NCBI GenBank assembly: GCA_947474755.1
Contig: CANJJE010000011.1
Location: forward strand, 30,983-94,982
Direction of reading: 5' to 3'
DNA: 64,000 nt
From: Burkholderiales bacterium
GTDB taxonomy: Bacteria; Pseudomonadota; Gammaproteobacteria; Burkholderiales; Burkholderiaceae_C
The notes beneath the pieces are model-generated. The model did not search any database and was not told where the DNA came from. It was given only the letters and a program-made list of their open reading frames with translations. How positions within the stretch are numbered: the stretch's first letter is position 1; every line of letters starts with the position of its first letter. The translations under genes and the position numbers were made by a program. Below, piece after piece: positions 10,608-59,156 of this stretch.

Positions 10608-11734
10608 GGCGCGAGCAATTTCTCGTAGACGCGGTAGGTCTTATAGGGCTTGGCGCCGAGCGATTCGATGACGTGCCGCATCGGACGATTGTCCTCGAGG
10701 ATCCACGACAGCTCGACCTGGCGCACGCCCTTGGCCCGCAAGCCCTTGCGCAGCGAGTCGATGACCAGGAACGGCGCCAGCCCGCCGGCCATGCTGCCGC
10801 TGAAACTGCGCCGGATGCCCATCAGCGGCACCCGAGCGGTGCGCGCACCACCCTTCAGCCGCCACAGCAGCTTCAGCCAGTTGAAGGGCAGCAGCCGACC
10901 GTTGAAATCGGCGATCAACTCGTTCAGGTTGGGCAGTGCGATGCCGAAGCCAACCGCCTCGCCATTCATTTCGACGATCGCCACGCAGGTCGGGTCGATC
11001 AGCATCTTCATGCTCTTGGCCATATGCGCAATCTCGGCCTTCGTGAAGGCGATGAAGCCCCAGTTCTGCGACCAGGCGTCATTGAAGATCGCGGTGACGG
11101 TGTCGAACTCTTCCAGGTAGCGAGACTTGTCGAGGTGGCGCACCGTCAGCGCCTGCGCCGTGCGGCTGTCGATCTTGCGGCGTGCAGCGCGCGGCAACTC
11201 GTGATCCATGTCGTACATGTAGGCGATCAGGTCCTTCGCCTTCCCATAGCCAAGGGCCTCGATGCGCGCCGCGGCGTAGCTCGGGTCATGGCCCATCAGC
11301 ATCACCGGTGGGGTGTCGAAGCCATCGACGAGCAATCCGGTCTCCTCGTTGATCGACAGGTTGAATGGCCCCAGGATGTGACGTTTGCCGCGCGTGCGCA
11401 GCCAGGCTTCAGCGGCGCTGAACAACGCGGCGAACACCTCGCCATCGTCCTCGGCGGCGATCATTCCGAAGTGCCCGACGTCGGGGTCCGCCACCAATCG
11501 GTCGATCTGAGCACTGATTCGCCCAACATCGCGGCCATCCCGGCGTGCCAGCCATAGCTGCGTCTCGGCATGCTGGAAATACGGGTTCTTGGCAGGCGAC
11601 AGGGCCTCGCGACGTTCCAATACCAGCGGTGGAACAAAGACCGGGTCGTTGACGTACAAGCGCGAGGGCAACGTGATGAAGCGGTCCAGTTCCGTCGGTG
11701 TTCCAACAGGGACGATCTCGATGCGACTGCTCAT
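10604..11734 (-). CDS. GNAT-like acyltransferase family protein (candidate lipid N-acyltransferase)
   Basis: 376 aa from the internal ATG 11734, which overlaps the upstream stop (ATGA). The N-terminus reads IEIVPVGTPTELDRFITLPSRLYVNDPVFVPPLVLERREALSPAKNPYF and continues through RDVGRISAQID. I recognise this only as a GNAT-related family often mis-annotated, so the function is inferred from context. Confidence 0.55.
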   Translation of the reverse strand: MSSRIEIVPVGTPTELDRFITLPSRLYVNDPVFVPPLVLERREALSPAKNPYFQHAETQLWLARRDGRDVGRISAQIDRLVADPDVGHFGMIAAEDDGEVFAALFSAAEAWLRTRGKRHILGPFNLSINEETGLLVDGFDTPPVMLMGHDPSYAAARIEALGYGKAKDLIAYMYDMDHELPRAARRKIDSRTAQALTVRHLDKSRYLEEFDTVTAIFNDAWSQNWGFIAFTKAEIAHMAKSMKMLIDPTCVAIVEMNGEAVGFGIALPNLNELIADFNGRLLPFNWLKLLWRLKGGARTARVPLMGIRRSFSGSMAGGLAPFLVIDSLRKGLRAKGVRQVELSWILEDNRPMRHVIESLGAKPYKTYRVYEKLLAP

Positions 11735-44320: not shown

Positions 44321-44599
44321 ATGATTCGGAGCTTTTGCTGCAAAGACACGCAGGCCTTGTTTGAAGGTGGACATCCAAAACGCTTGCGCGCCATCGAGAC
44401 CGTTGCGACCCGCAAGCTGGCAATGCTGGACGCGGCCCAGACGCTGGACTTCATGCGGTCGCCGCCAGGCAATCGGCTTGAAGCGCTCAGGGGTGCCCGG
44501 GCAGGGCAATGGAGCGTTCGTATCAACGATCAGTGGCGGCTGTGCTTCGTGTGGACTGACTCCGGTCCGGACCAGGTCGAGATCGTTGACTATCACTGA
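44321..44599 (+). CDS. higB: HigB-type (RelE/ParE superfamily, plasmid maintenance system killer) toxin
   Basis: 92 aa. The sequence runs MIRSFCCKDTQALFEG, then NRLEALRGARAGQWSVRINDQWRLCFVW, and ends VEIVDYH. This is the canonical HigB pattern, and an HTH antitoxin gene lies 12 nt downstream. Confidence 0.85.
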   Translation: MIRSFCCKDTQALFEGGHPKRLRAIETVATRKLAMLDAAQTLDFMRSPPGNRLEALRGARAGQWSVRINDQWRLCFVWTDSGPDQVEIVDYH

Positions 44600-44611
44600 A
44601 GGAGTGTTGCC

Positions 44612-44920
44612 ATGGGGCGAGTGTTGAACCGAATGCGTGCCGTGCATCCTGGCGAAGTGTTGCGTGAAGAGTATCTGGTGCCATTGAGCCTGAGCGTGAA
44701 CGCGCTCGCCATGGCGCTGGGAGTGCCTGCCACGCGCATTCACGAAATAGTGAAGGAGCGCCGCGGCATCACTGCCGACACGGCCGAACGCTTGGCGCGC
44801 TACTTCGGTGGCGATGCCGCGTCGTGGCTGGCGCTGCAGGCCGACTATGACCTGAAGACCCTGGCCACACGGGACGACATTGCTCGAAAGGTATCGCCGC
44901 GCGAGGCAGCGCCTGCATAG
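44612..44920 (+). CDS. higA: HigA-type antitoxin (XRE-family HTH)
   Basis: HPGEVLREEYLVPLSLSVNALAMALGVPATRIHEIVKERRGITADTAERLARYFG. Confidence 0.85.
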   Translation: MGRVLNRMRAVHPGEVLREEYLVPLSLSVNALAMALGVPATRIHEIVKERRGITADTAERLARYFGGDAASWLALQADYDLKTLATRDDIARKVSPREAAPA

Positions 44921-44941: not shown

Positions 44942-45030
44942 TCAGCCTCAAGCCCAGCTCGGCGCGATCACCGGATTCAATGCCGCCGCGTGATTTGCCG
45001 GCAAGGTCGTTTGCCCCGCCGCTGGCGGCG
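44942..45030 (-). repeat. direct repeat R2, copy b (authentic 3' end of the RTX gene)
   Basis: See 41022..41110. Confidence 0.85.
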
Positions 45031-48000
45031 CGAAAGTCGCCATCGCATCGACGAGCTGCTGCACCTGCGACGCCAGCAAGGCCTGCCCGTCGGCGAGCTT
45101 GAAGCTTTCGATGCGATGGCTCGGGCTCGTGTACCAGCCGTTGATCGTCAGCCTGTCGGTCGTGCCGATCACTGACAGCTCCAGGTTGCTGCCGAGGCGG
45201 CGAAGCCAGACCTGGCTTTCTGTGACGACGGCCAGGATGTCGAGGCGGTCGCTTCCACCGGCATCGGTCAAGGTGTCGGCGCCCTGGCCGCGACCCCACA
45301 CATAGATGTCGTTCGATGTCGTCGAGGTGTCGCTCAGCGTGTCAGACCCGAGGCCGCCGATATAGGTGTCGTTACCTTCGCCTCCCGCCAGCACGTTGGC
45401 GCCCGAGTTGCCCGTCAGTGTGTTGCTGAGTGAATTGCCAGTGCCGTTGACCGCCGCAGAGCCCGTCAGCGTCAGGTTCTCGAGATTGGCCCCCAGCGTC
45501 CATGTCACTGCCGATTGGACGGTGTCGGTACCTTCATTGGCCGCCTCGGTCACGACATCGGTGACCACGTCGACAACGAACAGGTCGTTGCCAGCGCCGC
45601 CGACCAGGGTGTCGTTGCCCGCTCCGCCGGTCAGCGTGTCATTGCCGGCGCCGCCGGCGAGCGTGTTGTTCGCGCCGTTGCCTGTGAGAGCGTTGTCGAG
45701 GGCATTGCCGGTGCCATTGATGGCCGCGGTGCCGGTCAATGTGAGCGCCTCGATGTTGTTGCTCAACGTGTAAGTGGCCGTCGACTGCACACTGTCGTAG
45801 CCCTCGTTGGCTGCCTCTGTCAGCACGTCGGTTGTCGCGTCAACCACGTACAGGTCGTTTCCAGCTCCGCCCAGCATCGTGTCGTTGCCTGCTCCGCCGG
45901 TCAGCGTGTCATTGCCGGCGCCGCCGGCGAGCGTGTTGTTCGCGCCGTTGCCTGTGAGGGCGTTGTCGAGGGCATTGCCCGTGCCGTTGATGGCCGCGGA
46001 CCCAGTCAAAGTCAGGTTCTCGAGATGGGCACCCAGCGTCCATGTCACTGCCGATTGGACGGTGTCGGTACCTCCATTGGCCGCCTCGGTCACGACATCG
46101 GTGGCCACGTCGACCCCATAGACGTCGTTGCCAGCTCCACCGATCAGGGTGTCGTTGCCAGCCCCCCCGTTAAGCACGTTGGCGCCCGAGTTGCCCCTCA
46201 ATACGTTGTCCAGAAAGTTACCGGTGCCATTGAGCGCTGCCGACCCCGTGAGGGTGAGGTTCTCGACGTTGCTGGACAGCGCCCATGTCACGGACGACTC
46301 GACGGTGTCAATCCCGCCACCGCTGGACTCTGCAGTGATGTCGTGGACGTTGTCCACCACGTAGGTGTCGTCGCCCGATCCACCGATGAGCGAATCGAAC
46401 GAGCCACCGCCGTCCAAGCGGTTCGCGCCGGAGTTGCCGTGAATGGTGTTGTCTGAAGAATTGCCGGTTGCGTTGATGTTGTTGCTGCCAAGCAAACGGA
46501 GCACCTCGAATTGACCACCCAGTGTCCAGGTGACGGTGGACTCGACCGTATCCCATCCTGCGTTGATGCTTTCGACGAGGACGTCAGCAGCGTTGTCGAC
46601 CCGATAGAAATCGTCGCCAAGGCCGCCCGCCATCGTGTCGGCTCCTGCACCGCCGTCGAGCGTGTCGTTGCCCGCGTTGCCGGAGAGCATGTCGCTACCT
46701 CCCAGGCCATACAGCGCGTCGGCGCCATCGGCTCCCGCGAGCGTATCGGCAGCCGGAGTTCCGACAAAGCGCTGCACAGGACTCGCAGTGACTTCCTGCT
46801 GGATGCGCGTCGCATCCCAGAGCGTTCCATCGGCGAAGCGGACTTGCTGAACCACGCTGTAGTTGCCAGCGCCCGTATTGAAGTAGCCCGTCGCGACGAT
46901 CTTGTCATCGGTCCCGATGATGCTCAGCTGCAAGCCAGCAAGGCCCGAAAACTGTCCGTCGGCCACTCGCCGAGCGACGACGTCTGAAGGCAAGATTCCC
47001 ATCCTGAATTCGATGGTGGCCCAGTGGGTAGGTGAGCTGTAGAAAAACGTCTTGATGACGTCTTGTCCGTCGCCTCTGTTGAAGCAGGCAACGTCTCCCC
47101 CACCAAGATCATTGAGCGTGTCATTGCCGGTGCCGCCGTCGAACGTATCGACTCCATATGACCCACCGAACAGGGCGTCATCACCCGCACCACCTCGAAG
47201 GATTCCCCCCGACCCCCCGAACAAGGTGTCGGCACCGTCACCGCCTTGAAGGGTGTAACCAGCGCTCTTGGCAATCAAGACGTCATTGCCATTGCCGCCA
47301 TCGAGCAGGTCGCCGCCGTACCACGAGATCAAGCGATCGTCTCCCTCACCACCCGTCAGTGTGTCCGAATCGAACATGAAGTCCGCCCCTCTTGGGTAGA
47401 GGGCAACTTGCTGATCCTCGATCACATCGTCGCCGGCGCCACCTTCGAGCACGTCGTTCCAGAACGAGCCCACGACCCGGTTCGCGCCCGCATTACCGAC
47501 CAGGCGCACCCCTTCCACGCCGTAGACGGAGTACGGGTATTTCCAATCGAATTTCCCATTGGCGAATATGTTCTCGACGTTGGCGTAGTTGTCCAACCGA
47601 AACACGGCTCCGCTCGACAGCGCCGAGGGCGCTCCAATGGCAGCGGAGTCGATCACCACCGTATCGGTGCCGCCACCGATGGCCTCGATCACGACGTCGC
47701 CAGCGTCAACAAAGTAGACGTCGTCCCCACCCAACCCCGTGAGGCGGTTGATGGCCGTGTTCTTTGAGGCGCGCAACTCGTTGTTGCGGTCATCACCGGT
47801 GGCGTTCAACGCCGCGCTGCCCAGCAGCTCGATGTTCTCCACCCTGTCCACCAGCGTCAGGGAGATGGCGGACGAGATCAGCGTATCTCGGGTCGAAACG
47901 CTGTCGCTGCCGGTCTCGATGACGACGTCTCCAACCTGGTCGATGCGGTAGTAGGTGTCCTCGGCGCCTCCGATCATCGTGTCGGCGCCTTCTCCACCGT

Positions 48001-51000
48001 CGATCAACACTCCATTGAACAGCGACGCGTCGTACCCGGAGAAAGTGGCCCCAGGACGACCGTTCGTCACATCGATCTGGTTGGCCAATGCGTTGCCAAC
48101 GAACCAGGGTCTCGTGTCCGAGGCCCGGCCGTCGTAGATGCGATCGGCGGCCAGGAACGTTATCGGCCGCAGCTTGTTCGAGGCCGTATCGCGCAGATAG
48201 TCATAGAAAAGGGATCGCACCGCCATGCTGGCGACGATCATGTTTTCGACTTCATCCGGCAACCGAACACGGTACTGGCTGGTCACCAAGGTGTCGATTC
48301 CTTCCCCGGCTCGCTCGATGACCTTGTCCCACGGCAGAGAGTGACCCCACGTCGCGTTGGCATCAGCAAGTACCGAGAGGTTGCCGACGTCGTATAGCGA
48401 TGAGGTTTGGTCCGACCTGACGACATAGACGTCATTGCCCGCGCCACCCGACAACGTGTCGTTGCCTTGCAGGCCGTCCAGAACGTTGTCACCGGCGTTC
48501 CCGTTGATCACATTGCCCAGCGTGTTGCCGATCGCTGCAGCGTTGATGGAGCCAGTCAACGACAGGTTCTCGACATTGACTGGGAGCGTGTACGACACCG
48601 AACTGGTGACGCTGTCGACCCCTGCGTTGGCAGCTTCGCTGATCGAATCGAGCGGGTGGTCCACGACAAAACTGTCATTGCCCGCGGTGCCGGTCTGCGA
48701 GTTCACCGTTCCCTGCGCCGCAACCAGCCGTGCGTTGATATCGGCTGCCAACCATCGCCTGCCGTTCGAGAACTCGATCGCTTCGATGCCACCTGCCGCG
48801 GTGAAGAAGCCCGGTATCCAGATCTCGTCGCTGCCAGCGAGCGAGACGACCAATGCGTCAGCGGCGTACGACGTGCTGAACCACCCGGCAAAGTCAACCG
48901 GGGTGCTCGAGGTACGGACCAACGTCAGTTCTGATTCAAGGATTCCCGGACCCAAGCGAATCACGTCATAGCCCTGGCTCTCGCCGATCACATCCTGGGC
49001 GTCACCGCGGTTGTAAAGGTAGGTGTCATCACCGTCGCCTCCATACAGCAAGTCTCGGCCAGCGCCGCCCGCCAGCTGATCCATGCCTTCTTCGCCCCGA
49101 AGCGTGTCAGCGCCGCTGCCGCCATTCAAGGTGTCGTTGCCGACTCGCCCCGAGAGCGAGTCGTTGCCTGCCGCTCCATTCAAGACGTCGTTACCGATCG
49201 TCCCCAGATAGGTGTCGTCAGCAGCAGTTCCGCCAAAGGTACGGTCAAGGATCGCCTGAACGTTCCAGGTGGTGTTGTCGGCGAAACGGATTTCACGCAG
49301 CGGATTGAGGTGGTTGCCGGGATCGTCATTGAAGAAGAACCGGTTCACCGTCACCCGGTCGCTGGTTCCGGCGATGGAAACTTCCAACGCCCAGTCGCCC
49401 GTGTAGTTGAGGTACGGCACGCGTTTCAGCACAACCTCTGCCGGCGCGACGCCAGCTTTGAACAGCAGCGTGTCTGACGCAGTGCCAGAGCCGCCCGTGT
49501 CGATGATGTCTTGCCCGTCCCCGCGGCCAAACAGGTAGGTGTTGTTGCCCCCATTGCCGAACAGGGAGTCATTGCCCCTGCCGCCATCGAGTGTGTCGTT
49601 TCCGCCACCGCCCTCCAGCACATCGTTGCCACCCTGGCCACGCAGCAGATCGGCAGTCGCGTGACCGTAGATGAAGTCGGCGCCTTCATCTCCATCTCGG
49701 ATGGCGTTGGCGCGCAGTGCCGCCTCATTCCAGGCGGTGCCGTTGGAGAACCGCACCTGCTCGATGGCCGCTTCAGGCGACGACTCGGCAAACCCACGCG
49801 TCACCACCAGTTGCTCTCCCGTGGCGATGTTGCGCACCACGGCGTTGCCGAACACATCGCGCCGCACGCTGATGTCAGCTGGATTGAGGCCTTGCAGTTC
49901 CAGCGTGTCCATCCCCCCCGGCAAGACGCCGAGTTCACTCACGGTGTCATGACCGGAACCCAGCCCCCAGCGGTAGGTGTCGTCGCCAGTACCTCCTTCG
50001 AGGCGATCGTCGCCCGTGCCGCCGTCGAGAGTGTCATTTCCTGCCCCGGCATACAGGCTGTCGTCCCCGCCCAGCCCCAACAGGGTGTTGTCAGTCGCGT
50101 GCCCATAGATGCTGTCGGCACCCGCGCTGCCCGTCATGGAGGTGTTCGCCCGGATGGCCGTGTCGTCCCAGACCGTACCCTCGGCAAAGCGAAGGCTCTC
50201 GATACGACCGGAAGTGTTGCCTTCCGAGAAGCCGATTGACACCTTGAGTGTTTCGCCCGTACTCAGAATCTGGATCAGCATGTCGCTGCTGGAAGTGCGC
50301 GTGATGCGCACATCGGCCGGGGCAAGGCCCTGTAGTTCGATGACGTCGTTGCCAGACTCCTCAACGATGAAGTCGTTGCCGTTGGCCGCGCGCCAGCGAT
50401 AGACGTCATCGCCGGCTCCGCCTCGCATGTCGTCGGCTCCGGCGCCTCCGTCGAGCGTGTCGTTCCCGACACCGCTCCCCAGGGTGTCAGCGCCTTCGCC
50501 GCCGCTCAAGAGGTTGTCCCCTTCAGCGCCGGAAAGCGAGTCGTTTCCGACACCGCCGTCGAGGATGTCGTTGCCTCCGCCGCCATTCAGCCAGTCGTTG
50601 CCATCGCCGCCGGCGATCAGATCGTTGCCGTCATGGCCGACCAGGCTGTTGCCCGCGCCGTCACCCAGCAGGATGTCGGCACCATTGGTGCCCGCTGCAT
50701 TTCCCCAGCCCACACCCAGCGATGAAAGATAGGCGCGAACCGGTGAACTGATCGGCATGGCATCGACCCAGGTGCGCAGCCGGTTCAGCCCGTCGAAGCC
50801 CGTGGCCTGGAGGGTCGGCGACGCGCAGAGAAGCAACTCAACCAGGTCAATCGCAGCCTCGCGCTCGTTGGCAACCTTGCGCGTGTCCAGCAATGAGGCC
50901 AGCGCGCTGGTGTCCAGGCGCGCCCCGCTGGCATCGACCACCAACTCGATGCCAGCCAGATAAGGCTTCAGCCTCGTCTGTGTCACCAGCGAGAGATACA

Positions 51001-53764
51001 CCGACGTGCTCAGGGAGTCGTAACTGGCCTGCATTGAAGCCGCCTGCTGTGCGGCCATCGTGTACGTGCGTATCTGCACGCCATTCTGGGTGGATGCGGT
51101 GGAAGTCCAGCCACTTTCATCGACGGTGACGCCGTTGAACACCTCCAGCACAGGGATGATGCGAGCCAACTTCGCTTGAAGCGCCGTGTCGGTGCTGCCT
51201 GTCACCACGAAGCGGCGTGTCTCGGCACCAACCGGCTGAATGCTGAATCGATCGGCAATCGCCTCTGTGGCGGCCCAGGTCCGCAGCAGCGCATCCAGCG
51301 CGGCCAGCTGCGCATCACGCGTGGTGCCCTGCGCAAACACCTGTACCGCAGACACCAGTGCAGCCGCAGCCGCATTGCCCAGACTCATCGCTTCACGCAG
51401 ATCGCGCACCACGCCAGAGCCTGCCATTTCGGGCAAATTCAACGCCGTGGCGGTCAACGGCTGGACGGGGAAGCTGCGGTAGAACGGATTGCTCGCCAGG
51501 TTCAGGTTGCCCGCTGTGGTGTCTGCACCCACGGCCACGCTATCGATCTGCGTGGTGCTGCCATTGGTACGCGTCACCAGTGCTTGCCCGGTGACGGTGT
51601 TGCCATTGCCCAGGTTCACAGTGCTCGTGGTCGGTGTCAGGCTGATGCTGGCGATGTTCTTCTGAGCCAGCGTGAACAGCTCTGTGCTCTGGCTGATGCC
51701 GTCCTGGTTCAGGTCCTGCCAGAGCCGGACTTGAGTGAATGCGGTATCGGATGTGTTGAACACACGATCATTGTTGGAATCGAGCCTGGCCAGCGCTGCA
51801 AAGCCTGTCGAGGCATACACCGCATCGACACCCGGCGTGCCCGACAACAAGGTATCGACGCCGAACAGCTCGCGCCCGCTGTCGATCAGGCCATTGCCAT
51901 TGCGGTCCAGCACCAGCCAGGCATCGTTGGCCTGAACCCAGCCCGTGCCCGTGCGGATGCCATCGGCGTTGTGGTCGAAGAGGATCGGCGTGGCACCAAT
52001 GCCGACCGTTTCGATGCCGTTGCCGTTGAGGTCGATCGCCAGAGGATCGCGGAGCACGGGGGGGGGCAGGGCGTTGCGGAAGTTGGTGTTGGTGGCGGGA
52101 TCACTTTTGGTTTTCGGCTTCTTCGGAATGAAGATGCCCACGTCGCCATCGACGAAGTCATTGATCACCACCACGCTGCCTGCGCCGGCCACCGTGAGCC
52201 TCTGCGTGGGTACCTCGTAGCGATAGGTGATGGGAGAGCCCGGATTGCTGAGGTCCATCCACAGCTTCAGGTTGGCGCTCTCGGAGATCAAGGTGCCATC
52301 GCCATTGAGCTGGCGCTTATCCAGCCGGAGCCGGTCGGCGGCTTCGCTGCTGTTGATGGTGTCGGTGCCTGCGTAGGCAGAGACCACGTAGAGGTCGGCG
52401 TCTGCGCCACCGACCAGGGTGTCGTTACCGACACCACCCACGAGCGTGTCGTTGCCTGCCGCACCGATCAGCGAATCCGCTCCGCCCAGGCCCACCAGCA
52501 AGTCATTCCCACCGCCGCCGTTCAACGTGTCCCCAGCGGTGCCGCCCACTGCCACGTCGGCCAGACCGTCTGAGCCTGCCCAGGTCATTGCGCCTGGGCC
52601 GGACTGAACGTGCCACTTGGTGATTGAAGCTGCGCCAGATTTCACTGCATCACCATCGCGGTCAGCGATCGTTGCCAATGCGTCAGCAAGTTTGGTCGGG
52701 CTTTTGAGTGAGCCGACTGCCACCCCGACATCGGCGAGGTTGAAGTTCACTGCACCGCTGTTGGTTGTGAACAGGCCCGAAGCACTGGCCGGGGTCTTGC
52801 GGTAGTAATAGTCCAGCGCAGCGATATTCAGCGCCTTTTGCATGGCTGCATCTGCAGTAGTGCCGCCAGCGACGGTCAACTGCTTCACATCGGTGCCGAA
52901 GCGATCGAGCAGCGGTGTGGCTGCATTGCTCACCTGCGCGATGTACAGGCGGTCGATGAAGTTTGGGTCTTGCGAGAATTGCGGATCGCGGTAGTGAAGA
53001 CTGTTGTCAAAAATCTGTGCCAGCAAGTGAGGTGAACTGCGCACCGCATCGGCGAACGTGGTGGAGCGCTCCATCGATGCCAGCAGCGTCATGGAATGCA
53101 AATCCAGTGCGCCTGCGGCGGTCGGGCCGGTTGCTATGGGAAGGTTCAGCCCGATGGCAGTGAATGTGTTGCGCAGATAACTGACGAACTCTCCCTGTAG
53201 GTACTGCCCAAAAACATTGCCTTCTCGTGCGGAGTATTGCGATGAAATCGCGGAGCGGTAAGTGTCGAATTCGGTGTTGGTGAAACCAAGCTCTGCCATC
53301 TTGGCCTTGTAGGCCGCTAATGCGTATGCAGATAGCGCACCCCGTTTAAAGGGGGCTGCATCAAATACACGCGCCTCGCGGTTGAAAAATATCCCCATCA
53401 TGGCGGCCAGCCCTCCGCCCAGCGAATGACCCGTGAAGGTGATATTTGCTGTTGCAGAACTGGTGCGTTTGACCTCCAGATACAGCTTCATCGCCTCCCA
53501 TACCTGCAGTGAGCTGACGTCGCCACCTGTATACGCCGGGATATTGCCAAAGGCGAAATCGGAAATTAGTCGTTCGTTGGTGCCTGTGTAGGCGATGACG
53601 ATGTCGTCACCTTTTCTGTAGACGCCGGCAGAGAAGCCAGTAAGTGCGAAGTCTTTTATCCAGGGGCGTTCTTCTATCCATCCGGTGGGGATCGGGGTTC
53701 GGTTCGCTTGTGTTCTTCCGTAAGCAGCGTTGGACAGCTGTGCGTATTCTTGCGGCGTTGGCAT
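44948..53764 (-). CDS. giant RTX (repeats-in-toxin) calcium-binding protein with N-terminal class-3 lipase domain; T1SS substrate
   Basis: 2938 aa. The N-terminus runs YAQLSNAAYG to ITFTGHSLGGGLAAMM (GxSxG nucleophile elbow). There are dozens of GGxGxDxL nonapeptide repeats and several HCBP-related modules (the pattern IE..RFA.GT.W). The C-terminus is acidic and Cys-free. The hlyD/hlyB-like genes lie upstream in the same orientation. Confidence 0.9.
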   Translation of the reverse strand: MPTPQEYAQLSNAAYGRTQANRTPIPTGWIEERPWIKDFALTGFSAGVYRKGDDIVIAYTGTNERLISDFAFGNIPAYTGGDVSSLQVWEAMKLYLEVKRTSSATANITFTGHSLGGGLAAMMGIFFNREARVFDAAPFKRGALSAYALAAYKAKMAELGFTNTEFDTYRSAISSQYSAREGNVFGQYLQGEFVSYLRNTFTAIGLNLPIATGPTAAGALDLHSMTLLASMERSTTFADAVRSSPHLLAQIFDNSLHYRDPQFSQDPNFIDRLYIAQVSNAATPLLDRFGTDVKQLTVAGGTTADAAMQKALNIAALDYYYRKTPASASGLFTTNSGAVNFNLADVGVAVGSLKSPTKLADALATIADRDGDAVKSGAASITKWHVQSGPGAMTWAGSDGLADVAVGGTAGDTLNGGGGNDLLVGLGGADSLIGAAGNDTLVGGVGNDTLVGGADADLYVVSAYAGTDTINSSEAADRLRLDKRQLNGDGTLISESANLKLWMDLSNPGSPITYRYEVPTQRLTVAGAGSVVVINDFVDGDVGIFIPKKPKTKSDPATNTNFRNALPPPVLRDPLAIDLNGNGIETVGIGATPILFDHNADGIRTGTGWVQANDAWLVLDRNGNGLIDSGRELFGVDTLLSGTPGVDAVYASTGFAALARLDSNNDRVFNTSDTAFTQVRLWQDLNQDGISQSTELFTLAQKNIASISLTPTTSTVNLGNGNTVTGQALVTRTNGSTTQIDSVAVGADTTAGNLNLASNPFYRSFPVQPLTATALNLPEMAGSGVVRDLREAMSLGNAAAAALVSAVQVFAQGTTRDAQLAALDALLRTWAATEAIADRFSIQPVGAETRRFVVTGSTDTALQAKLARIIPVLEVFNGVTVDESGWTSTASTQNGVQIRTYTMAAQQAASMQASYDSLSTSVYLSLVTQTRLKPYLAGIELVVDASGARLDTSALASLLDTRKVANEREAAIDLVELLLCASPTLQATGFDGLNRLRTWVDAMPISSPVRAYLSSLGVGWGNAAGTNGADILLGDGAGNSLVGHDGNDLIAGGDGNDWLNGGGGNDILDGGVGNDSLSGAEGDNLLSGGEGADTLGSGVGNDTLDGGAGADDMRGGAGDDVYRWRAANGNDFIVEESGNDVIELQGLAPADVRITRTSSSDMLIQILSTGETLKVSIGFSEGNTSGRIESLRFAEGTVWDDTAIRANTSMTGSAGADSIYGHATDNTLLGLGGDDSLYAGAGNDTLDGGTGDDRLEGGTGDDTYRWGLGSGHDTVSELGVLPGGMDTLELQGLNPADISVRRDVFGNAVVRNIATGEQLVVTRGFAESSPEAAIEQVRFSNGTAWNEAALRANAIRDGDEGADFIYGHATADLLRGQGGNDVLEGGGGNDTLDGGRGNDSLFGNGGNNTYLFGRGDGQDIIDTGGSGTASDTLLFKAGVAPAEVVLKRVPYLNYTGDWALEVSIAGTSDRVTVNRFFFNDDPGNHLNPLREIRFADNTTWNVQAILDRTFGGTAADDTYLGTIGNDVLNGAAGNDSLSGRVGNDTLNGGSGADTLRGEEGMDQLAGGAGRDLLYGGDGDDTYLYNRGDAQDVIGESQGYDVIRLGPGILESELTLVRTSSTPVDFAGWFSTSYAADALVVSLAGSDEIWIPGFFTAAGGIEAIEFSNGRRWLAADINARLVAAQGTVNSQTGTAGNDSFVVDHPLDSISEAANAGVDSVTSSVSYTLPVNVENLSLTGSINAAAIGNTLGNVINGNAGDNVLDGLQGNDTLSGGAGNDVYVVRSDQTSSLYDVGNLSVLADANATWGHSLPWDKVIERAGEGIDTLVTSQYRVRLPDEVENMIVASMAVRSLFYDYLRDTASNKLRPITFLAADRIYDGRASDTRPWFVGNALANQIDVTNGRPGATFSGYDASLFNGVLIDGGEGADTMIGGAEDTYYRIDQVGDVVIETGSDSVSTRDTLISSAISLTLVDRVENIELLGSAALNATGDDRNNELRASKNTAINRLTGLGGDDVYFVDAGDVVIEAIGGGTDTVVIDSAAIGAPSALSSGAVFRLDNYANVENIFANGKFDWKYPYSVYGVEGVRLVGNAGANRVVGSFWNDVLEGGAGDDVIEDQQVALYPRGADFMFDSDTLTGGEGDDRLISWYGGDLLDGGNGNDVLIAKSAGYTLQGGDGADTLFGGSGGILRGGAGDDALFGGSYGVDTFDGGTGNDTLNDLGGGDVACFNRGDGQDVIKTFFYSSPTHWATIEFRMGILPSDVVARRVADGQFSGLAGLQLSIIGTDDKIVATGYFNTGAGNYSVVQQVRFADGTLWDATRIQQEVTASPVQRFVGTPAADTLAGADGADALYGLGGSDMLSGNAGNDTLDGGAGADTMAGGLGDDFYRVDNAADVLVESINAGWDTVESTVTWTLGGQFEVLRLLGSNNINATGNSSDNTIHGNSGANRLDGGGSFDSLIGGSGDDTYVVDNVHDITAESSGGGIDTVESSVTWALSSNVENLTLTGSAALNGTGNFLDNVLRGNSGANVLNGGAGNDTLIGGAGNDVYGVDVATDVVTEAANGGTDTVQSAVTWTLGAHLENLTLTGSAAINGTGNALDNALTGNGANNTLAGGAGNDTLTGGAGNDTMLGGAGNDLYVVDATTDVLTEAANEGYDSVQSTATYTLSNNIEALTLTGTAAINGTGNALDNALTGNGANNTLAGGAGNDTLTGGAGNDTLVGGAGNDLFVVDVVTDVVTEAANEGTDTVQSAVTWTLGANLENLTLTGSAAVNGTGNSLSNTLTGNSGANVLAGGEGNDTYIGGLGSDTLSDTSTTSNDIYVWGRGQGADTLTDAGGSDRLDILAVVTESQVWLRRLGSNLELSVIGTTDRLTINGWYTSPSHRIESFKLADGQALLASQVQQLVDAMATFAPPAAGQTTLPANHAAALNPVIAPSWA
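45400..46700 (-). repeat. coding tandem repeats, five units of 81-90 codons (exact 270-bp period between 45631 and 45901)
   Basis: The units read ND.Y.VD...DV.TEAAN.G.DTVQS.VTWTLG..LENLTLTGSAA.NGTGN.L.N.LTGN...N.L.GGAGNDTL.GG. Stretches of more than 100 bp are near-identical between 45585-45760 and 45855-46030. The boundaries are approximate. Confidence 0.8.
51470..52048 (-). other. FrpC/ApxIVA-like Ca2+-dependent self-processing module (SPM) with candidate Asp573-Pro574 scissile bond
   Basis: Residues 573 onward read D-PLAIDLNGNGIETVGIGATPILFDHNADGIRTGTGWVQANDAWLVLDRNGNGLIDSGRELFG, with further DxNxDG-type loops (DSNNDRVF, DLNQDGIS). Recognised from memory of the FrpC SPM; the C-terminal boundary is approximate. 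Confidence 0.6.
53015..53764 (-). other. lipase class 3 / alpha-beta hydrolase domain of the RTX protein (first ~250 codons)
   Basis: GHSLGG (the Ser114 codon is 53423-53425), preceded by the pattern typical of the family: FSAGVYRKGDDIVIAYTGTNE. This stretch is visibly lower in GC than the rest of the gene. Confidence 0.75.
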
Positions 53765-53812
53765 TGTGAATTCCTGGTTGATGAGCTTGTACCAGCAGCT
53801 AATTTTTAGAAA

Positions 53813-54400
53813 TTAACAACCACTGCTCCATTTTTCGACAATTTTTTTGTATTCAGGTGCAGCGCTAGGCCTGTCCTCAACTTCTTTTTCTTTTCGAGAC
53901 ACTGTCAGGATGGGTTTGCTGGAGTTAATTGCTTTTCTAGAAGCGAGATCAGTCACCAGCACATTTGCCTTGCGCCCTATCCACTTCGGCTCCATCGATT
54001 GCTGCAACCATTTCCCCTCTCGATACCGGTACGCTGTGTATGGCAACGCGGGTCGTCCGATGTCGTACCAGCTGTCACAGTGATAGAAAGTCGCGACGAT
54101 CATCCATTCGTGTGTATCGGGATCCCGGTCAAGAATCATTGGCACATACAGCCCACTCCAAATCGTCGGGTTACCTGGCTTGTCCGGCGATTCAAACTCA
54201 ATCGTCATGCCCCGGTTGAACGACCCACCGCCACCGCCAGCGATCCAGTTCTCGCTGAATTTGGCAGTGCGCTTGATCACGATGACCTCGCCACTCTGGA
54301 GTTGGACCTCCTCTCGCCAGTTCATGCTGGGGTCGCTAAAGACAAGCCAGAGTCCTGCTGCGGTAACGAAAACCCCTGCGAACCAAAGTTTGCGCTTCAT
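53813..54400 (-). CDS. small membrane-anchored protein of unknown function, paralogue 1 (candidate lipase immunity/accessory protein)
   Basis: 195 aa with an AAGGAG Shine-Dalgarno sequence 6 nt upstream. The N-terminal hydrophobic anchor is KLWFAGVFVTAAGLWLVF. It is a low-GC gene 48 nt upstream of the RTX-lipase start and a paralogue of 54570..55163. Confidence 0.7.
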   Translation of the reverse strand: MKRKLWFAGVFVTAAGLWLVFSDPSMNWREEVQLQSGEVIVIKRTAKFSENWIAGGGGGSFNRGMTIEFESPDKPGNPTIWSGLYVPMILDRDPDTHEWMIVATFYHCDSWYDIGRPALPYTAYRYREGKWLQQSMEPKWIGRKANVLVTDLASRKAINSSKPILTVSRKEKEVEDRPSAAPEYKKIVEKWSSGC

Positions 54401-54569
54401 TCATGGCTCCTTAGATAACCGGGTGTGTTGAATTGAGCAGCCCCAAGCCAGACAAGCTTCCATCAGGAGTCCATTCCTCAGTCCACCCTGTTTCGTGGCT
54501 GCATAGGCCCGCGATGAAAGTTGTGCATATTCCTTTTTTGAAACCATTTGAAACTCCGAAAATTTTAAG

Positions 54570-55163
54570 TTAGCAATATGTTTTCCATGCGCGTACGATG
54601 CTCTTGTACTCCGGAGATACTCTTGGATCGCTAAGCTTGTCTCTTTTCATTTGCAGAGAATAGTCAGGTCCTGCGTCTCTTCCATTTGGAACCAGAATAT
54701 TTCCTTCTCTACCTATTAACTTTTCAGAAAGAGGTAGCTGGATCCATGTTCCGTTTCTGTATCGGAATTCGGTGTATGGCAACTTGGGCCTGCCGAGGCT
54801 GTACCAATCGGTACACATGTAGAATGTTGCTACGATAAACCATTCATTATTATCGGGGTCACGGTCGAATACCAGTGGCAAGAATGGTGGGTGACGCCAT
54901 TGGGGCGGAGAATCCTTGCGATTGGGTGATGAAATTTCCAAAGTAGACTCGATAACGTCAGATCCGCCAACACCGCCGATGGGTCGATCAAACTCGAACT
55001 GTATACTTCGGTCGACTGTCAATAATTCGCCGTTTTGCAACTGAACTTCTTCCTTCCAGTGGTGACGATTGGCGAAGTGGCTCCATAGCCAATATGTGGC
55101 GACTACCAATAGCGCCAGGGTTGTATAGCTGAGCGGTGCTTTTCGGGTGGGTAAGAATTTCAT
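54570..55163 (-). CDS. small membrane-anchored protein of unknown function, paralogue 2
   Basis: 197 aa with N-terminal anchor YTTLALLVVATYWLW. It shares these blocks with paralogue 1: W.EEVQLQ.GE, DRDPD..EW.IVATFY.C..WY..GRP.LPYT..RYR.G.W, PEYK.IV and a terminal Cys. Very low GC. Confidence 0.7.
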   Translation of the reverse strand: MKFLPTRKAPLSYTTLALLVVATYWLWSHFANRHHWKEEVQLQNGELLTVDRSIQFEFDRPIGGVGGSDVIESTLEISSPNRKDSPPQWRHPPFLPLVFDRDPDNNEWFIVATFYMCTDWYSLGRPKLPYTEFRYRNGTWIQLPLSEKLIGREGNILVPNGRDAGPDYSLQMKRDKLSDPRVSPEYKSIVRAWKTYC

Positions 55164-55224
55164 TGGTGAATAATTTCAAAAAGATGGATCGTGGAACCGG
55201 TGAGAGTCAATTCAAGATAATTTT

Positions 55225-55447
55225 TTAAAGAGATGAGAAACCACGTATGGTGATGATCTGGGCATCGGCGCCCTCGGCGCTGCAGAACCATTCGCACAGA
55301 TGCACCAGACGCAAATCCGGAAACACGTCCTTCGCGTAAGACGTCTCGCCCCAGCCCGCGCACCTCCCACCCGCGGCGCTGGCACCAGGCGCGCACCTGG
55401 TGCGCAAACTGCCCGGGGAAGTTCTGGTGAATGACGAGTACTTCCAT
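55225..55447 (-). pseudogene. decayed 5' remnant of a glycosyltransferase gene (frameshifted and truncated)
   Basis: The ATG at 55447 overlaps the hlyD-like stop by 1 nt. Frame 1 reads MEVLVIHQNFPGQFAHQVRAWCQRRGWEVRGLG. A second frame (track ORF 55225..55407) reads AKDVFPDLRLVHLCEWF. Both resemble blocks of one GT family, and the sequence then breaks into low-GC DNA. Confidence 0.55.
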
Positions 55448-56868
55448 CACCGCTCCCGCAGGCTTTCGCCGACTGTCTTCTGAATCGGGCTGAGCAGGTA
55501 GTCGATCACCCGGCGCTGGCCGGTCCTGATCTCGGCAGTGATGTTCATGCCCGGGCTCAGCCCGATGCGCTTGCCGTCGACGTCGATGTGGGTTTGTGCA
55601 AGCTTCAGCGTCGCTGGAAAGATCGCTCCCTTTTTTTCGTCGTTCACGGCATCCGCGGTCACGCTGCTCACGGTGGCATCGACCGTGCCGTACCGGGTGT
55701 AGGGGAAGGTTTCCAGCTTGATGGTGGTCTGCTGTCCGGCGTTGACGAAGCCGATGTCCTTGTTGTCGATCACCACCTCGGCGGTGACCTCGGCGTCCTT
55801 CGGCACGATCACCATCAGCACCTGGGCTTCGGTCACCACGCCGCCCTCGGTGTGCACCGCCACCTGCTGCACGGTGCCGTCGACCGGCGCGGTCAGTTGC
55901 GTGAGCCGCGAGCGCTGCTGCGTCTTGTTCAATTCCTGGATGAACTGCTGGCGCTTCAGGATCGCCTGCGCCTGCCGTTCACTGAGTGAGCGCTGGGTCT
56001 CGGCCAGATAGGCCGCACGAGCCTGCGCGGTCTCGCGCGACGCAGCCTGGGCTTCGGCAAGCCGGGCCTGCTGCGTGGCCAGATCGCGCTCCTGTTCGAT
56101 GCGCTCGCGGGTGCGGTCCTGTCCGGCATGACCGGACATGAATCCCTTCTCGGTCAGCGCCTTGAAATCCATCTCCCGTTGCCGGGCCATGGGCAGCGTT
56201 GCCTCCAGCTTGGCGATCGTCTCGCGCACCGTCGCAAGCTCGGCCTGTCGGTGTGCCTGCCCGGCATCGAGTCTGGCCAGTCGGGCGGAGATGTCCTGCC
56301 ACTCGGCATCGAGCTGAGCGCTGACATGGCTGCTCGCTGCTGTCGCAAGTGTTGGCGCACGCCGAGAACGCAGTGCCTGGATCAAGGCCGTGGTGCGCAC
56401 CTCCTCTGAATGCGCCCACGCCAGTTGCTCCTGCGCGTTGGCGCCGTCGGCGCTGGCGTTGGTGGCATCGAGTTCCACCAGCACCTGCCCCGCGTGAACC
56501 GAGTCACCGTTCTTGACCAGCACCTTGCGAACGACGCTGGTTTCCAGCGGCTGGAGCGTCTTGGTGCGCTCGCTCACCACGATGCGACCGGGCGCCACCG
56601 CGACGATGTCGACCCGCCCGAGGATGCTCCACACCAGCGCGATGACGAACAGCGCGCAGATCGCCCACGCAAAGCGTCGCGGGGCCGGGTGCACCGGCGT
56701 TTCCTGCAGGCTGAGCGCGGCGGGCAGAAAGGCCGCTTCATCGGCAAGACGCCTCGGCCCCGACAGCTCGTGCCGCATCGCCCAGACCGCGCCGAAGATG
56801 GCGCGATAACGGGCCATCAGATCGAGGGCAGGGTGGCGCGTAGCCACCGATTTTGGCGATGTGGTCAT
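55447..56868 (-). CDS. HlyD-family type I secretion periplasmic adaptor
   Basis: 473 aa from ATG 56868, which overlaps the ABC stop (ATGA). It has a single N-terminal TM, long coiled-coil segments, and a C-terminus GMNITAEIRTGQRRVIDYLLSPI typical of HlyD. The 766-aa track ORF is an out-of-frame extension into the ABC gene. Confidence 0.9.
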   Translation of the reverse strand: MTTSPKSVATRHPALDLMARYRAIFGAVWAMRHELSGPRRLADEAAFLPAALSLQETPVHPAPRRFAWAICALFVIALVWSILGRVDIVAVAPGRIVVSERTKTLQPLETSVVRKVLVKNGDSVHAGQVLVELDATNASADGANAQEQLAWAHSEEVRTTALIQALRSRRAPTLATAASSHVSAQLDAEWQDISARLARLDAGQAHRQAELATVRETIAKLEATLPMARQREMDFKALTEKGFMSGHAGQDRTRERIEQERDLATQQARLAEAQAASRETAQARAAYLAETQRSLSERQAQAILKRQQFIQELNKTQQRSRLTQLTAPVDGTVQQVAVHTEGGVVTEAQVLMVIVPKDAEVTAEVVIDNKDIGFVNAGQQTTIKLETFPYTRYGTVDATVSSVTADAVNDEKKGAIFPATLKLAQTHIDVDGKRIGLSPGMNITAEIRTGQRRVIDYLLSPIQKTVGESLRER

Positions 56869-59156
56869 GGCGTCACCGATTGATGGGGTTGGGCTGCTGT
56901 GCCCTCCTGCATCGCCCACAGGCGCGCATACAGCCCCTGTGGCTGGGCCCGCAGTTCGTCGTGTGTGCCCATCTCGACGACACGCCCCTGGTCCATCACC
57001 ACGATGCGGTTGGCGTTGCGCACCGCGCTCAGGCGGTGAGCGATCACCAGCACCGTGCGGCCCTGGCAGATGTGCGCCATATGGCGTTGGACGATGGCTT
57101 CGCTTTCGTAGTCGAGCGCGCTGGTGGCCTCGTCGAAGATCAGGATGCGCGGCTGGTTGAACAGAGCGCGGGCGATCGCGATTCGCTGGCGCTGGCCGCC
57201 CGACAGGCTGGCGCCTTGCTCGCCGACCAGCGTGTCGTAGCCCTCGGGCAGCTCGCTGATGAACTCGTGCGCTCCCGCCAGTTGCGCGGCGTGCAGCACG
57301 GCCTCGATCGGCGCCGCAGGGTCGGTGATGGCGATGTTCTCGCGCACGCTGCGGTGGAACAGCAGGTTGTCCTGCAGCACCACGCCAATCTGCCGTCGCA
57401 GCTGCGATGCATCGATCAGCCCGATGTCGATCCCATCGATCAGGATGCGGCCCTGCTCCGGCGAATAGAGGCGCTGCACCAGCTTCGTCAGCGTGCTCTT
57501 GCCCGAGCCCGATCGCCCGACGATGCCGATCACCTCGCCTGGGCGGATGTCCAGGCTGAAGCCTTGCAAGGCCGGCGTGGCCTCGGGCCGGTAGCGAAAG
57601 GTGACCTGATCGAGCGTGATCTGGCCGCGGATCGGTGGCAGCTGTGCGGCGCTTGTTCCCTGGCCCATGGCGGGTACCTCGGTGCGCGCGTTCAGCACAT
57701 CGCCGAGCCGGGCCATGGAGATACCCGTCTGCTGGAAGTCGCTCCACATCTGCGCCATGCGCATGATGGGCTGGCTGACGCGGCCGGCAAACATGTTGAA
57801 GGCGACGAACATGCCGACCGTCAACTGCCCTTCGATCACCAGGTGGGCGCCGTACCAGAGCGTGGCGGCATTGACCAGCTTGCCGATCAGGTTGACGCCT
57901 TCATGCGCGAAGCCGGCCAGGGCCTGCGTTCTGAAGCTGGCCGACACATAGGCGGCGAGCTGGTTGTCCCAGCGGCGCGCCATCGCGGGTTCGAGTGCCG
58001 TGGCCTTCACCGTCTGAATGCCGGTCACGGTCTCGACCAGCAGGGCCTGGTTCTCGGCGCCGCGGGCGAATTTCTCGTCGAGCCGGGCGCGAAGCACCGG
58101 CACCACCATCCAGCTCAGGGCGAGGTAGAGCGGAATCGAAACCAGCACGATCAATGTCAGCGGCACGCTGTAGGCGAACATCACCGCAATGAAGACGACC
58201 GAGAACACGACGTCCAGCACCAGCGTCAGCGCGTTGCCGGTCAGGAAGCTGCGGATGTTTTCCAGTTCGCGCACACGGGCGACCGAATCGCCGACGCGGC
58301 GCGCCTGGAAATAGGCCAGCGGCAGGTGCAGCAGATGGCGAAACAGCCGCGCGCCCAGCTCGACATCGATGCGGCTGGTGGTGTGGCTCAAGACGTAGGC
58401 TCGCAGCGCGTTCAGCACGCTCTCGAACACCACCACGACGACGAGGCCGATGACCAGCACATCGAGCGTGTTCAGTCCGCGGTGAACCAGCACCTTGTCC
58501 ATCACGACCTGAAAGAACAGCGGACTGACCAGCGCGAACAGCTGCAGGAACAGGCTGATCGCCAGCACTTCGCCGAACAGGCGGCGGTGTCTGACGAGGC
58601 TCGGAATGAACCAGCTGAAATCGAACCTCGCCAGCTCGCCGGCGAGCGAAGCGCGACTGGTGATCAGGATCAGCTCGCCGGTCCATTGGGCGGCGAAGAC
58701 GTCGAGCGGCTCGATCGTCGGGCGCGCGCCATTCACTGACGAGGTACCCGCGGCACCTGAAGGATCCTGAAACAGCACTCGCTGGCCGTCGCACTGGGCG
58801 AGCACGACGATGCGCGGGTCACTGCCTTCGTCGGGCCTCAACAAGGCCAACGCGGGCAGTGCTGCGAGGTTCAGTCGATCGATGCTGCTGCGGCTGCGCC
58901 TGGCCTTCAGGCCGATCTGCCGCGCTGCGATCAGCAGGTCGTTGATGTCAGCGCGGTGGCTGGCGGACCAGCCGAGTTGATGGGCCAGCGTGGCCGGATC
59001 CGCGGCAATGTGGTGCAGGCGAGCGATCAGGCACAGCGCCCGCAAGCCGCTGTGCGGCGAGGCCTGGGTCGAGGGGGTCGGGTCGGCCGCACGCGGGCCC
59101 GGAGTGAAGACGGACGGATCCTGAGTGTCCGATCGCGCAGTCTCCGGTGGGCCCAT
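56865..59156 (-). CDS. HlyB-type type I secretion ABC transporter (N-terminal C39-like domain, permease, ATPase)
   Basis: Contains an N-terminal CLD-like region (SGLRALCLIARLHHIAADP), Walker A GRSGSGKST, signature LSGGQRQRIAIARAL and Walker B ILIFDEATSALD. ATG 59156 is chosen, and the longest ORF starts at TTG 59174. Confidence 0.9.
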   Translation of the reverse strand: MGPPETARSDTQDPSVFTPGPRAADPTPSTQASPHSGLRALCLIARLHHIAADPATLAHQLGWSASHRADINDLLIAARQIGLKARRSRSSIDRLNLAALPALALLRPDEGSDPRIVVLAQCDGQRVLFQDPSGAAGTSSVNGARPTIEPLDVFAAQWTGELILITSRASLAGELARFDFSWFIPSLVRHRRLFGEVLAISLFLQLFALVSPLFFQVVMDKVLVHRGLNTLDVLVIGLVVVVVFESVLNALRAYVLSHTTSRIDVELGARLFRHLLHLPLAYFQARRVGDSVARVRELENIRSFLTGNALTLVLDVVFSVVFIAVMFAYSVPLTLIVLVSIPLYLALSWMVVPVLRARLDEKFARGAENQALLVETVTGIQTVKATALEPAMARRWDNQLAAYVSASFRTQALAGFAHEGVNLIGKLVNAATLWYGAHLVIEGQLTVGMFVAFNMFAGRVSQPIMRMAQMWSDFQQTGISMARLGDVLNARTEVPAMGQGTSAAQLPPIRGQITLDQVTFRYRPEATPALQGFSLDIRPGEVIGIVGRSGSGKSTLTKLVQRLYSPEQGRILIDGIDIGLIDASQLRRQIGVVLQDNLLFHRSVRENIAITDPAAPIEAVLHAAQLAGAHEFISELPEGYDTLVGEQGASLSGGQRQRIAIARALFNQPRILIFDEATSALDYESEAIVQRHMAHICQGRTVLVIAHRLSAVRNANRIVVMDQGRVVEMGTHDELRAQPQGLYARLWAMQEGTAAQPHQSVTP

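Follow-up and report, generated by a model that had tools for sequence, protein, structure and literature searches.

What do two small membrane-anchored proteins do beside a giant secreted lipase? The question is raised by a stretch of DNA from a Burkholderiales bacterium (contig CANJJE010000011.1, positions 30,983 to 94,982; the whole 64,000 nucleotides (nt) are referred to as the window), in which two small genes, par1 and par2, lie directly upstream of a gene for an RTX (repeats-in-toxin) protein with an N-terminal lipase, behind genes for a type I secretion system (T1SS). We favour, at a probability of about 0.6, the reading that both are immunity proteins against the N-terminal class-3 lipase of a T1SS-secreted, FrpC-like RTX protein, with par1 as the cognate protein and par2 as an orphan. 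The features on which this reading turns are listed here.

53813-54400, minus strand: par1, 195 amino acids (aa); member of a new family, with a predicted N-terminal signal anchor and periplasmic beta-rich domain
54570-55163, minus strand: par2, 197 aa; same family as par1 but of another clade, with an N-terminal hydrophobic anchor
52046-53764, minus strand: N-terminal fragment of the RTX protein, residues 1-573; class-3 lipase/phospholipase-like domain followed by a short RTX block
51515-52045, minus strand: FrpC-type self-processing module (SPM), residues 574 to about 750; matches PDB 6SJW/6SJX
44948-51514, minus strand: remainder of the 2938-aa RTX protein; RTX repeats, HCBP_related domains and a C-terminal T1SS-substrate region

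The small-protein family and the adjacent RTX lipase

An earlier sequence-only reading had described the pair as same-strand open reading frames (ORFs) of 195 and 197 aa, low in G+C, with four shared blocks, and these descriptions hold. Both ORFs are on the minus strand, and W(R/K)EEVQLQ(S/N)GE, DRDPD..EW(M/F)IVATFY.C..WY..GRP.LPYT.(Y/F)RYR.G.W, PEYK(K/S)IV and a C-terminal Cys are all found; the 48 nt measured between the par1 stop and the ATG of the 2938-aa RTX/lipase ORF (44948-53764) is likewise the distance that had been given. The two proteins share 41% identity across 190 residues (BLASTP, E 1e-49). Whereas the window as a whole has a G+C content of 0.646 and its T1SS genes one of 0.66, the value falls to 0.52 in par1 and 0.47 in par2, and to 0.36 in the stretch directly upstream of par2. 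An AAGGAG motif lies 6 nt upstream of the par1 ATG. A scan of 53600-55600 for promoters and terminators returned nothing above shuffle expectation on the minus strand, which is weak evidence compatible with co-transcription.

Both par1 and par2 are real genes, because they belong to a family with 96 close clusters and 387 clusters at 50% identity, and because the ratio of nonsynonymous to synonymous substitution rates (dN/dS, by the Nei-Gojobori method) is 0.13-0.18 against orthologues; chance ORFs are ruled out by this conservation and selection. The larger count comes from an exhaustive phmmer search with par2 over 50% identity clusters, in which 387 cluster representatives match at E <=1e-3 and 197 at E <=1e-10. 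All of the source names are 'hypothetical protein', and the named hosts are Burkholderiales, including Rhodoferax, Cupriavidus and Burkholderiaceae metagenome-assembled genomes. A tblastn search of PLSDB plasmids with par2 and with the lipase domain gave no match.

The family is new and unannotated, and the earlier inability to place the pair in a known one is borne out: Pfam and NCBIfam scans of par1 and par2 gave no family match, a Pfam scan of 44 aligned relatives gave none either, and a Foldseek search of the par1 model against the PDB reached a best E of 0.09 with TM scores of at most 0.28. Matches to PspB (E 0.12, on the hydrophobic anchor) and VHL (E 0.096) were dismissed as noise. Among PDB sequences the family profile found only designed Kelch propellers, in which a 13-residue 'DPxTxEW' motif is summed six times, and this match is spurious.

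The AlphaFold model of par1 (pLDDT 82.5, pTM 0.78) begins with a helix (residues 4-20), and the domain that follows is predominantly beta apart from a few short helices near the C-terminus, in agreement with the N-terminal anchor and beta-rich domain expected from the sequence. The anchor consists of K2-R3-K4 followed by 17 hydrophobic residues, and the conserved cysteines of par1 are Cys108 and Cys195. Among the 303 family members with complete N-termini, 185 (61%) have a lipobox right before the conserved W-x-E-E-V motif, and in 103 (34%) its place is taken by a hydrophobic anchor like that of par1 and par2; a Cys is present within the last eight residues of 268, and the second family Cys (C108 of par1) is near-invariant. 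Because about 95% of the members carry either a lipobox or a hydrophobic anchor, together with two conserved cysteines, we predict that the family represents an exported, disulfide-bonded, membrane-tethered domain facing the periplasm, and the envelope-facing location proposed for the pair thus extends, as a prediction, to the family. Two further candidate roles were set aside: an HlyC-type acyltransferase, since HlyC is cytoplasmic and par1 and par2 are predicted to be exported, and a LapG/LapD-type retention system, to which there is no similarity.

The predicted partner, the 2938-aa RTX protein, contains 19 RTX nonapeptide blocks and 6 HCBP_related domains, with a Lipase_3 match at residues 90-129. 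Across 51 lipase homologues G61, D69 and TGHSLG.GLA (111-120, including GHSLGG at 112-117 with S114) are invariant and H223 is near-invariant; precomputed Pfam assignments on the homologues are PF26363 (Phospholipase-like) and Lipase_3, most of them with RTX repeats. The N-terminal 400 residues are modelled by AlphaFold at a pLDDT of 92.5, and the best solved-structure match of the domain is 9CYS_A (E 7e-7), the lipase effector of an Enterobacter cloacae type VI secretion system (T6SS) in complex with its immunity protein, with fungal class-3 lipases next.

The SPM behind the lipase domain, like the lipase stub between par2 and par1 described below, was overlooked in the sequence-only reading. 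Residues 574-750 match the SPM of Neisseria meningitidis FrpC (PDB 6SJW/6SJX) at E 2e-49, with an alignment that begins at Pro574, immediately after Asp573, and the identical protein at another locus (L016; we cite loci by such handles) has the precomputed Pfam assignment PF26745:SPM. By this homology Ca2+-dependent autocleavage is predicted at Asp573-Pro574, freeing a 573-residue lipase fragment, so that the SPM would give a release mechanism and residues 1-573 are the predicted released effector. At the other end of the RTX gene, HTH_3/HTH_19 antitoxin-like and HigB-like toxin genes (window positions about 44380-44920, plus strand; calls taken from the identical contig L016) abut its 3' end.

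Association with lipase genes and selection on the small genes

Whether the small genes belong with the lipase was examined in 48 gathered loci, about 25 of them independent after dereplication, which were scanned with hidden Markov models (HMMs) of the small protein and of the lipase domain. In 17 of the approximately 25 independent loci a homologous lipase gene, or what remains of one, begins 25-75 nt downstream of a family gene. About 25-75 nt separate the end of the family gene from a homologous lipase ORF in the window, in L003/L037 (with two separate pairs), and in L008, L010, L011, L012, L013, L015, L024, L034, L038, L040, L041 and L042; in L007, L009, L032 and L033 only a remnant of a lipase gene comes after the family gene; and in L001 and L020-23 the small gene is intact while the downstream RTX gene is missing its lipase end. 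Genes for the T1SS ATP-binding cassette (ABC) transporter and membrane-fusion protein are upstream of the family gene wherever the contig extends that far.

The same adjacency is seen from the lipase side. L048, chosen by its lipase (33% identity), has the order hlyD - family gene - lipase stub - family gene - lipase - family gene - lipase, and the suggested check on co-occurrence with Lipase_3-RTX genes thus returns a recurrent tight adjacency from both directions. Stubs beside intact small genes occur also in L032, L034 and L040. The array of L034 (1874-5870) shows a serial displacement of lipase alleles, with a family gene, a 62-aa lipase stub, a divergent family gene, a 64-aa stub, and a further divergent family gene in front of a full lipase. 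The L048 array also includes an unrelated pair of small paralogues (9248-9637 and 10499-10984; 129 and 161 aa at 39% identity, with a lipobox in one of the two) that precedes a lipase fragment and RTX gene, and this pair may be a further immunity-like family for another lipase variant.

Small-protein identity tracks lipase identity across 10 pairs (Pearson r 0.71, Mantel p 4e-4; lipase identities from 33 to 81%), and the very divergent small proteins L003a and L034c precede a divergent lipase clade. The selection data are more telling than this co-variation. Free-standing family genes with no lipase nearby are found in L002 (Cupriavidus sp. BIC8F), L028 (Rhodoferax saidenbachensis, beside insertion sequence elements), L029 (beside vapBC), L030/31, L035 and L039, and the comparisons that bear on genes lacking a working partner are these.

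par2 against its L032 orthologue, both beside a dead stub: dN/dS 0.13
Small genes beside degraded lipases: dN/dS 0.24-0.38
Free-standing orphans (L028/L030 and L002/L035): dN/dS 0.15-0.18

Because these values (0.13-0.38) denote purifying selection, the small proteins are retained without an encoded partner lipase, which is expected of immunity to the lipases of other cells and not of a foldase, chaperone or retention factor. It had been held that homologues widespread without lipase neighbours would count against a lipase-related role. About 6 of the 25 loci do have orphans, and to that extent the objection stands; these orphans are under purifying selection, however, and conform to an orphan-immunity pattern.

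The same data bear on two alternatives. The first, already raised in the sequence-only reading, is a lipase-specific foldase or secretion chaperone that would assist folding or export of the lipase. Lif, the foldase of lipases from the type II secretion system, offers a superficial likeness, as the small proteins too are membrane-anchored, face the periplasm and have a lipase gene for a neighbour. However, no Pfam family, Lif included, matches any of the 44 members scanned, the predicted model is beta-rich whereas the Lif fold is all-alpha, T1SS substrates skip the periplasm and fold outside on Ca2+ binding, and orphans and arrays would be unexpected; we regard this role as very improbable.

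The second is that the small protein serves in self-protection only, guarding the producer against leaked lipase, with the lipase itself aimed at eukaryotes (amoebae, algae or hosts) or at environmental lipids. T1SS RTX lipases and toxins are classically exoenzymes or anti-eukaryotic, and a delivery route into bacterial targets is not evident. Protection in cis by periplasmic immunity lipoproteins also has a precedent with type IV secretion effectors of Xanthomonas (PMC10933484). Orphans with no lipase nearby (L002, L028, L029, L030) and the conserved par2 nonetheless imply exposure to foreign lipases, and the allelic diversity of the lipase is matched by that of the small proteins, as is typical of intraspecific conflict. 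Self-protection alone is therefore an unlikely explanation, although clearly a better one than a foldase.

The lipase stub and the probable mosaic structure of the locus

If par1 is the immunity protein of the adjacent lipase, the presence of par2 has to be accounted for, and the spacer between the two genes is informative.

54411-54547, minus strand: dead 5' stub of a second lipase gene; reads MVSKKEYAQLSSRAYAATKQ, is frameshifted near 54476-54496, and continues as TGWTEEWTPDGSLSGLGLLNSTHPVI to a stop

The spacer is 169 nt long, and the ATG of the stub is at 54547, 22 nt past the par2 stop; the N-terminus of the intact lipase, for comparison, is MPTPQEYAQLSNAAYGRTQANRTPIPTGWIEERPW. The lipase HMM recognises the stub in the window at E 1.3e-3 and the orthologous L032 stub, which is in frame and 51 aa long, at E 4.3e-10, and both end at the same junction, PDGSLSGLG(I/L)LNS. 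The 'AYAAT' N-terminus of the stub is that of the L003b/L040 lipase clade, which is paired with par2-like genes, and par2 itself is 58% and 55% identical to the upstream small genes of that clade (the 58% relative being a Rhodoferax member) and 41-44% identical to par1. Because the stub N-terminus and the nearest relatives of par2 both point to the L003b/L040 clade, par2 and the stub form a displaced module and not a local duplicate of par1. The earlier description of the genes as tandem paralogues therefore holds in that they are 41% identical relatives; it does not hold in the sense of a plain duplication, as they fall in separate clades with a dead lipase stub between them.

Upstream of par2 are the traces of another gene and the T1SS genes.

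55261-55450, minus strand: what is left of a GT4 glycosyltransferase gene (428 aa when complete), namely residues 1-36 and 99-130
55447-56868, minus strand: T1SS membrane-fusion protein of the HlyD/CyaD type, 473 aa
56865-59174, minus strand: T1SS ABC transporter of the HlyB type, with an N-terminal C39-like domain

In L001, L020 and L032 a complete GT4 gene (Glyco_trans_4_3, 428 aa) separates hlyD from the small gene, and the remnant in the window marks the upstream edge of an inserted low-GC cassette. Behind its par2-stub-par1 cassette L032 has the 3' third of the GT4 gene a second time (L032 3770-5056 and 6570-7097), an arrangement that suggests insertion of the cassette into that gene by recombination. 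Between 55253 and 54051 the window matches L032 at about 84% nucleotide identity; the similarity ceases inside par1, for which reason the par2 orthologues are 95% identical and the par1 orthologues 68%; there is no lipase after the par1-like gene of L032. The pattern suggests a recombination breakpoint within par1 (54051), with a shared N-terminal part and a replaced C-terminal part and lipase, and points to a mosaic structure of the locus that probably arose by recombination.

Two details of the T1SS genes may be noted. The N-terminus of the ABC transporter (GLRALCLIARLHHI) is, by our own reading of its sequence, C39-like with the catalytic Cys absent at the C39 position. In the program-made ORF list hlyD starts further upstream, at a GTG at 57747 (55447-57747, minus strand, 766 aa), and overlaps the ABC gene; the 473-aa form with its start at 56868, as called on identical contigs, is the plausible one.

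Known counterparts, proposed mechanism and meaning

The sequence-only reading had likened the arrangement to the lipase effector-immunity (Tle/Tli) loci of the T6SS. The parallel holds in part: there is a GxSxG lipase with an adjacent gene for a predicted periplasmic or lipoprotein partner, immunity genes are multiplied and have orphan copies in both, the best fold match of the lipase is a T6SS effector (E. cloacae Tle-Tli, PDB 9CYS), and PF26363 is found also on a PAAR-like T6SS effector. It fails with respect to T6SS linkage and Tli homology. T6SS genes are absent from the locus, which instead has the components for T1SS export (HlyB-type ABC transporter, HlyD and a C-terminal RTX region), the candidate toxin domain forms the N-terminus of a giant RTX protein with an autocleavage module, and the small-protein family is unrelated to known Tli families.

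Since the RTX protein carries an FrpC-type SPM, the nearest known arrangement is frpD-frpC of N. meningitidis rather than Tle/Tli. In both, a gene for a small envelope protein is immediately upstream of a T1SS RTX gene, and the RTX protein has an N-terminal non-RTX domain followed by a homologous SPM (E 2e-49) that starts at the equivalent proline; FrpD is a lipoprotein, as most members of the new family are predicted to be. The FrpD lipoprotein binds the N-terminal domain of FrpC, and the pair has been hypothesised to be a T1SS effector and its immunity protein (PMC6759196). The differences are that the N-terminal domain is a class-3 lipase here and of unknown function in FrpC, that par1 and par2 have a transmembrane anchor and no lipobox, and that the present loci show allelic cassettes, stubs and orphans. 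The family profile did not match FrpD at E <=10 in a search of all PDB sequences, and FrpD was outside the top 50 Foldseek matches.

This parallel also furnishes the main rival to immunity, namely a non-protective, FrpD-like partner that docks, retains or activates the N-terminal domain of the lipase at the envelope and does not neutralise it, either holding the RTX protein on the producer surface or priming the lipase in the way that E. cloacae Tli primes Tle. Both the gene order and the SPM-bearing architecture resemble frpD-frpC, where only tight binding is established, and adjacency and co-variation fit any specific binding partner. Moreover, because E. cloacae Tli, an immunity protein, both neutralises Tle and is needed to activate it (PMC11470151, PMC10294624), a non-protective or dual role has a direct precedent. 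On the other hand, purifying selection on orphans and on copies beside dead lipases is hard to explain in this way, the family has no similarity to FrpD, and par1 and par2, with a predicted inner-membrane transmembrane helix, could not tether anything at the cell surface. We consider such a partner improbable in either variant, if somewhat less so than self-protection alone.

In its evolutionary pattern the locus resembles contact-dependent inhibition (CDI; cdiA-CT/cdiI) and Rhs-CT/RhsI systems, in which a variable toxin domain is likewise mounted on a conserved delivery scaffold. Shared with these are a cognate immunity gene beside the variable end, partner identities that co-vary, displaced toxin fragments with intact immunity genes in arrays (in the window, L032, L034, L040 and L048), and signs of recombination breakpoints. 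The polarity is mirrored, however, with the toxin at the N-terminus, the small gene upstream, and 5' stubs as the leftovers, and this is to be expected because the T1SS signal is C-terminal. The T1SS-secreted family I.3 lipases (Pseudomonas and Serratia LipA, PueA/B) resemble the present proteins in having an N-terminal lipase and C-terminal RTX repeats, a layout shared by short members of the present lipase family (e.g. a 584-aa protein in L003); their catalytic domain is not homologous, with NCBIfam PueAB matching the RTX part only, and they have neither a paired upstream envelope protein nor an SPM. A T1SS RTX lipase with an immunity gene was not found described in the searchable literature. 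The present arrangement is absent from a 2012 survey of polymorphic toxins (PMC3482391), in which, by a term search, RTX proteins figure only as host-directed toxins and the type I route is mentioned as background.

Under the immunity reading we propose the following course of events. The HlyB/HlyD-type T1SS would, from its gene content, export the 2938-aa RTX protein. By homology with FrpC, extracellular Ca2+ would fold the SPM and lead to the cut at Asp573-Pro574, and the freed lipase fragment could bear a reactive C-terminal anhydride, as in the 'clip-and-link' activity of FrpC. The lipase would then attack the membrane phospholipids of neighbours, and would be toxic to bacteria whose periplasm it reached. 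If expressed, par1 would be anchored in the inner membrane with its disulfide-bonded periplasmic domain binding and blocking the cognate lipase, thereby protecting the producer and its kin; the periplasm could be exposed either by leakage in cis or by sibling attack. As its evolutionary pattern suggests, par2 would have arrived with another lipase allele, now the dead stub, and would be kept against that allele when it comes from other strains. Lipase and small gene together would thus form an exchangeable cassette located at the RTX gene's 5' end, as the mirror image of the 3' toxin/immunity cassettes of CDI and Rhs systems.

Several points weigh against this reading. First, we know of no route by which a T1SS-released fragment of 573 residues would reach the periplasmic side of a target membrane. 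One-step T1SS export should not expose the periplasm of the producer either, and the need for a periplasmic immunity protein is then not obvious. Secondly, the family has neither homology nor fold similarity to known Tli, FrpD or X-Tfi proteins. Thirdly, linked genes that are simply inherited together would show co-varying identities as well, and most loci were recovered with a single peptide pattern (10 and 12 loci), so that the sample is biased to close relatives. Fourthly, par2 has no obvious Shine-Dalgarno motif. Finally, the T6SS version of the lipase has another kind of neighbour. In L044 (6001-8009) a distant lipase homologue has PF26363 fused to a Tox-PAAR-like domain behind three vgrG genes, so that the domain serves as T6SS cargo elsewhere; this use, like the invariant catalytic motif and the fold match to 9CYS_A, is in favour of a toxin role of the lipase. 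The L044 lipase is, however, followed by a 216-aa ankyrin-repeat protein and a DUF2169 gene; the former, ankyrin-like and without a signal peptide, is not a member of the family, and L044 appears to be a T6SS version of the lipase with a different, ankyrin-type candidate immunity neighbour.

The proposal of a T1SS-dependent antibacterial lipase with its immunity proteins is thus supported in part, with a new family, a predicted envelope-facing location, lipase adjacency and immunity-like evolution in its favour, and with the lack of homology to known Tli proteins against it. The description that fits the system best is that of a variant effector-immunity and polymorphic-toxin system on a T1SS, FrpC-like scaffold. 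The broader proposition, that it represents a new class of polymorphic interbacterial toxins on type I secretion, in which self-cleaving FrpC-like RTX scaffolds carry exchangeable N-terminal lipase warheads with upstream immunity genes, we put forward tentatively, as an idea with somewhat less than even odds. We attach the same caution to its corollary, that 5' warhead replacement leaves arrays of '5' stub plus orphan immunity', the mirror image of those in CDI and Rhs systems.

Exoenzymes, adhesins, host-directed RTX toxins and small bacteriocins are the cargo usually attributed to the T1SS, which to our knowledge has not been associated with large polymorphic enzyme toxins that have dedicated immunity genes. 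The present locus and its relatives provide a testable case, with a lipase warhead, a predicted cleavage site at D573-P574, and both cognate and orphan candidate immunity genes. If the reading is true, the T1SS would join the delivery routes of polymorphic toxins, and a family of several hundred 'hypothetical' lipoproteins would receive a name. It would also give a function to the enigmatic 'clip-and-link' RTX proteins of the FrpC/FrpD type, whose cleaved N-terminal fragment would be a warhead placed onto or into neighbours, and would help to account for the FrpC/FrpD puzzle in Neisseria. Pairs of lipase and inhibitor could, in addition, find use as specific lipase regulators.

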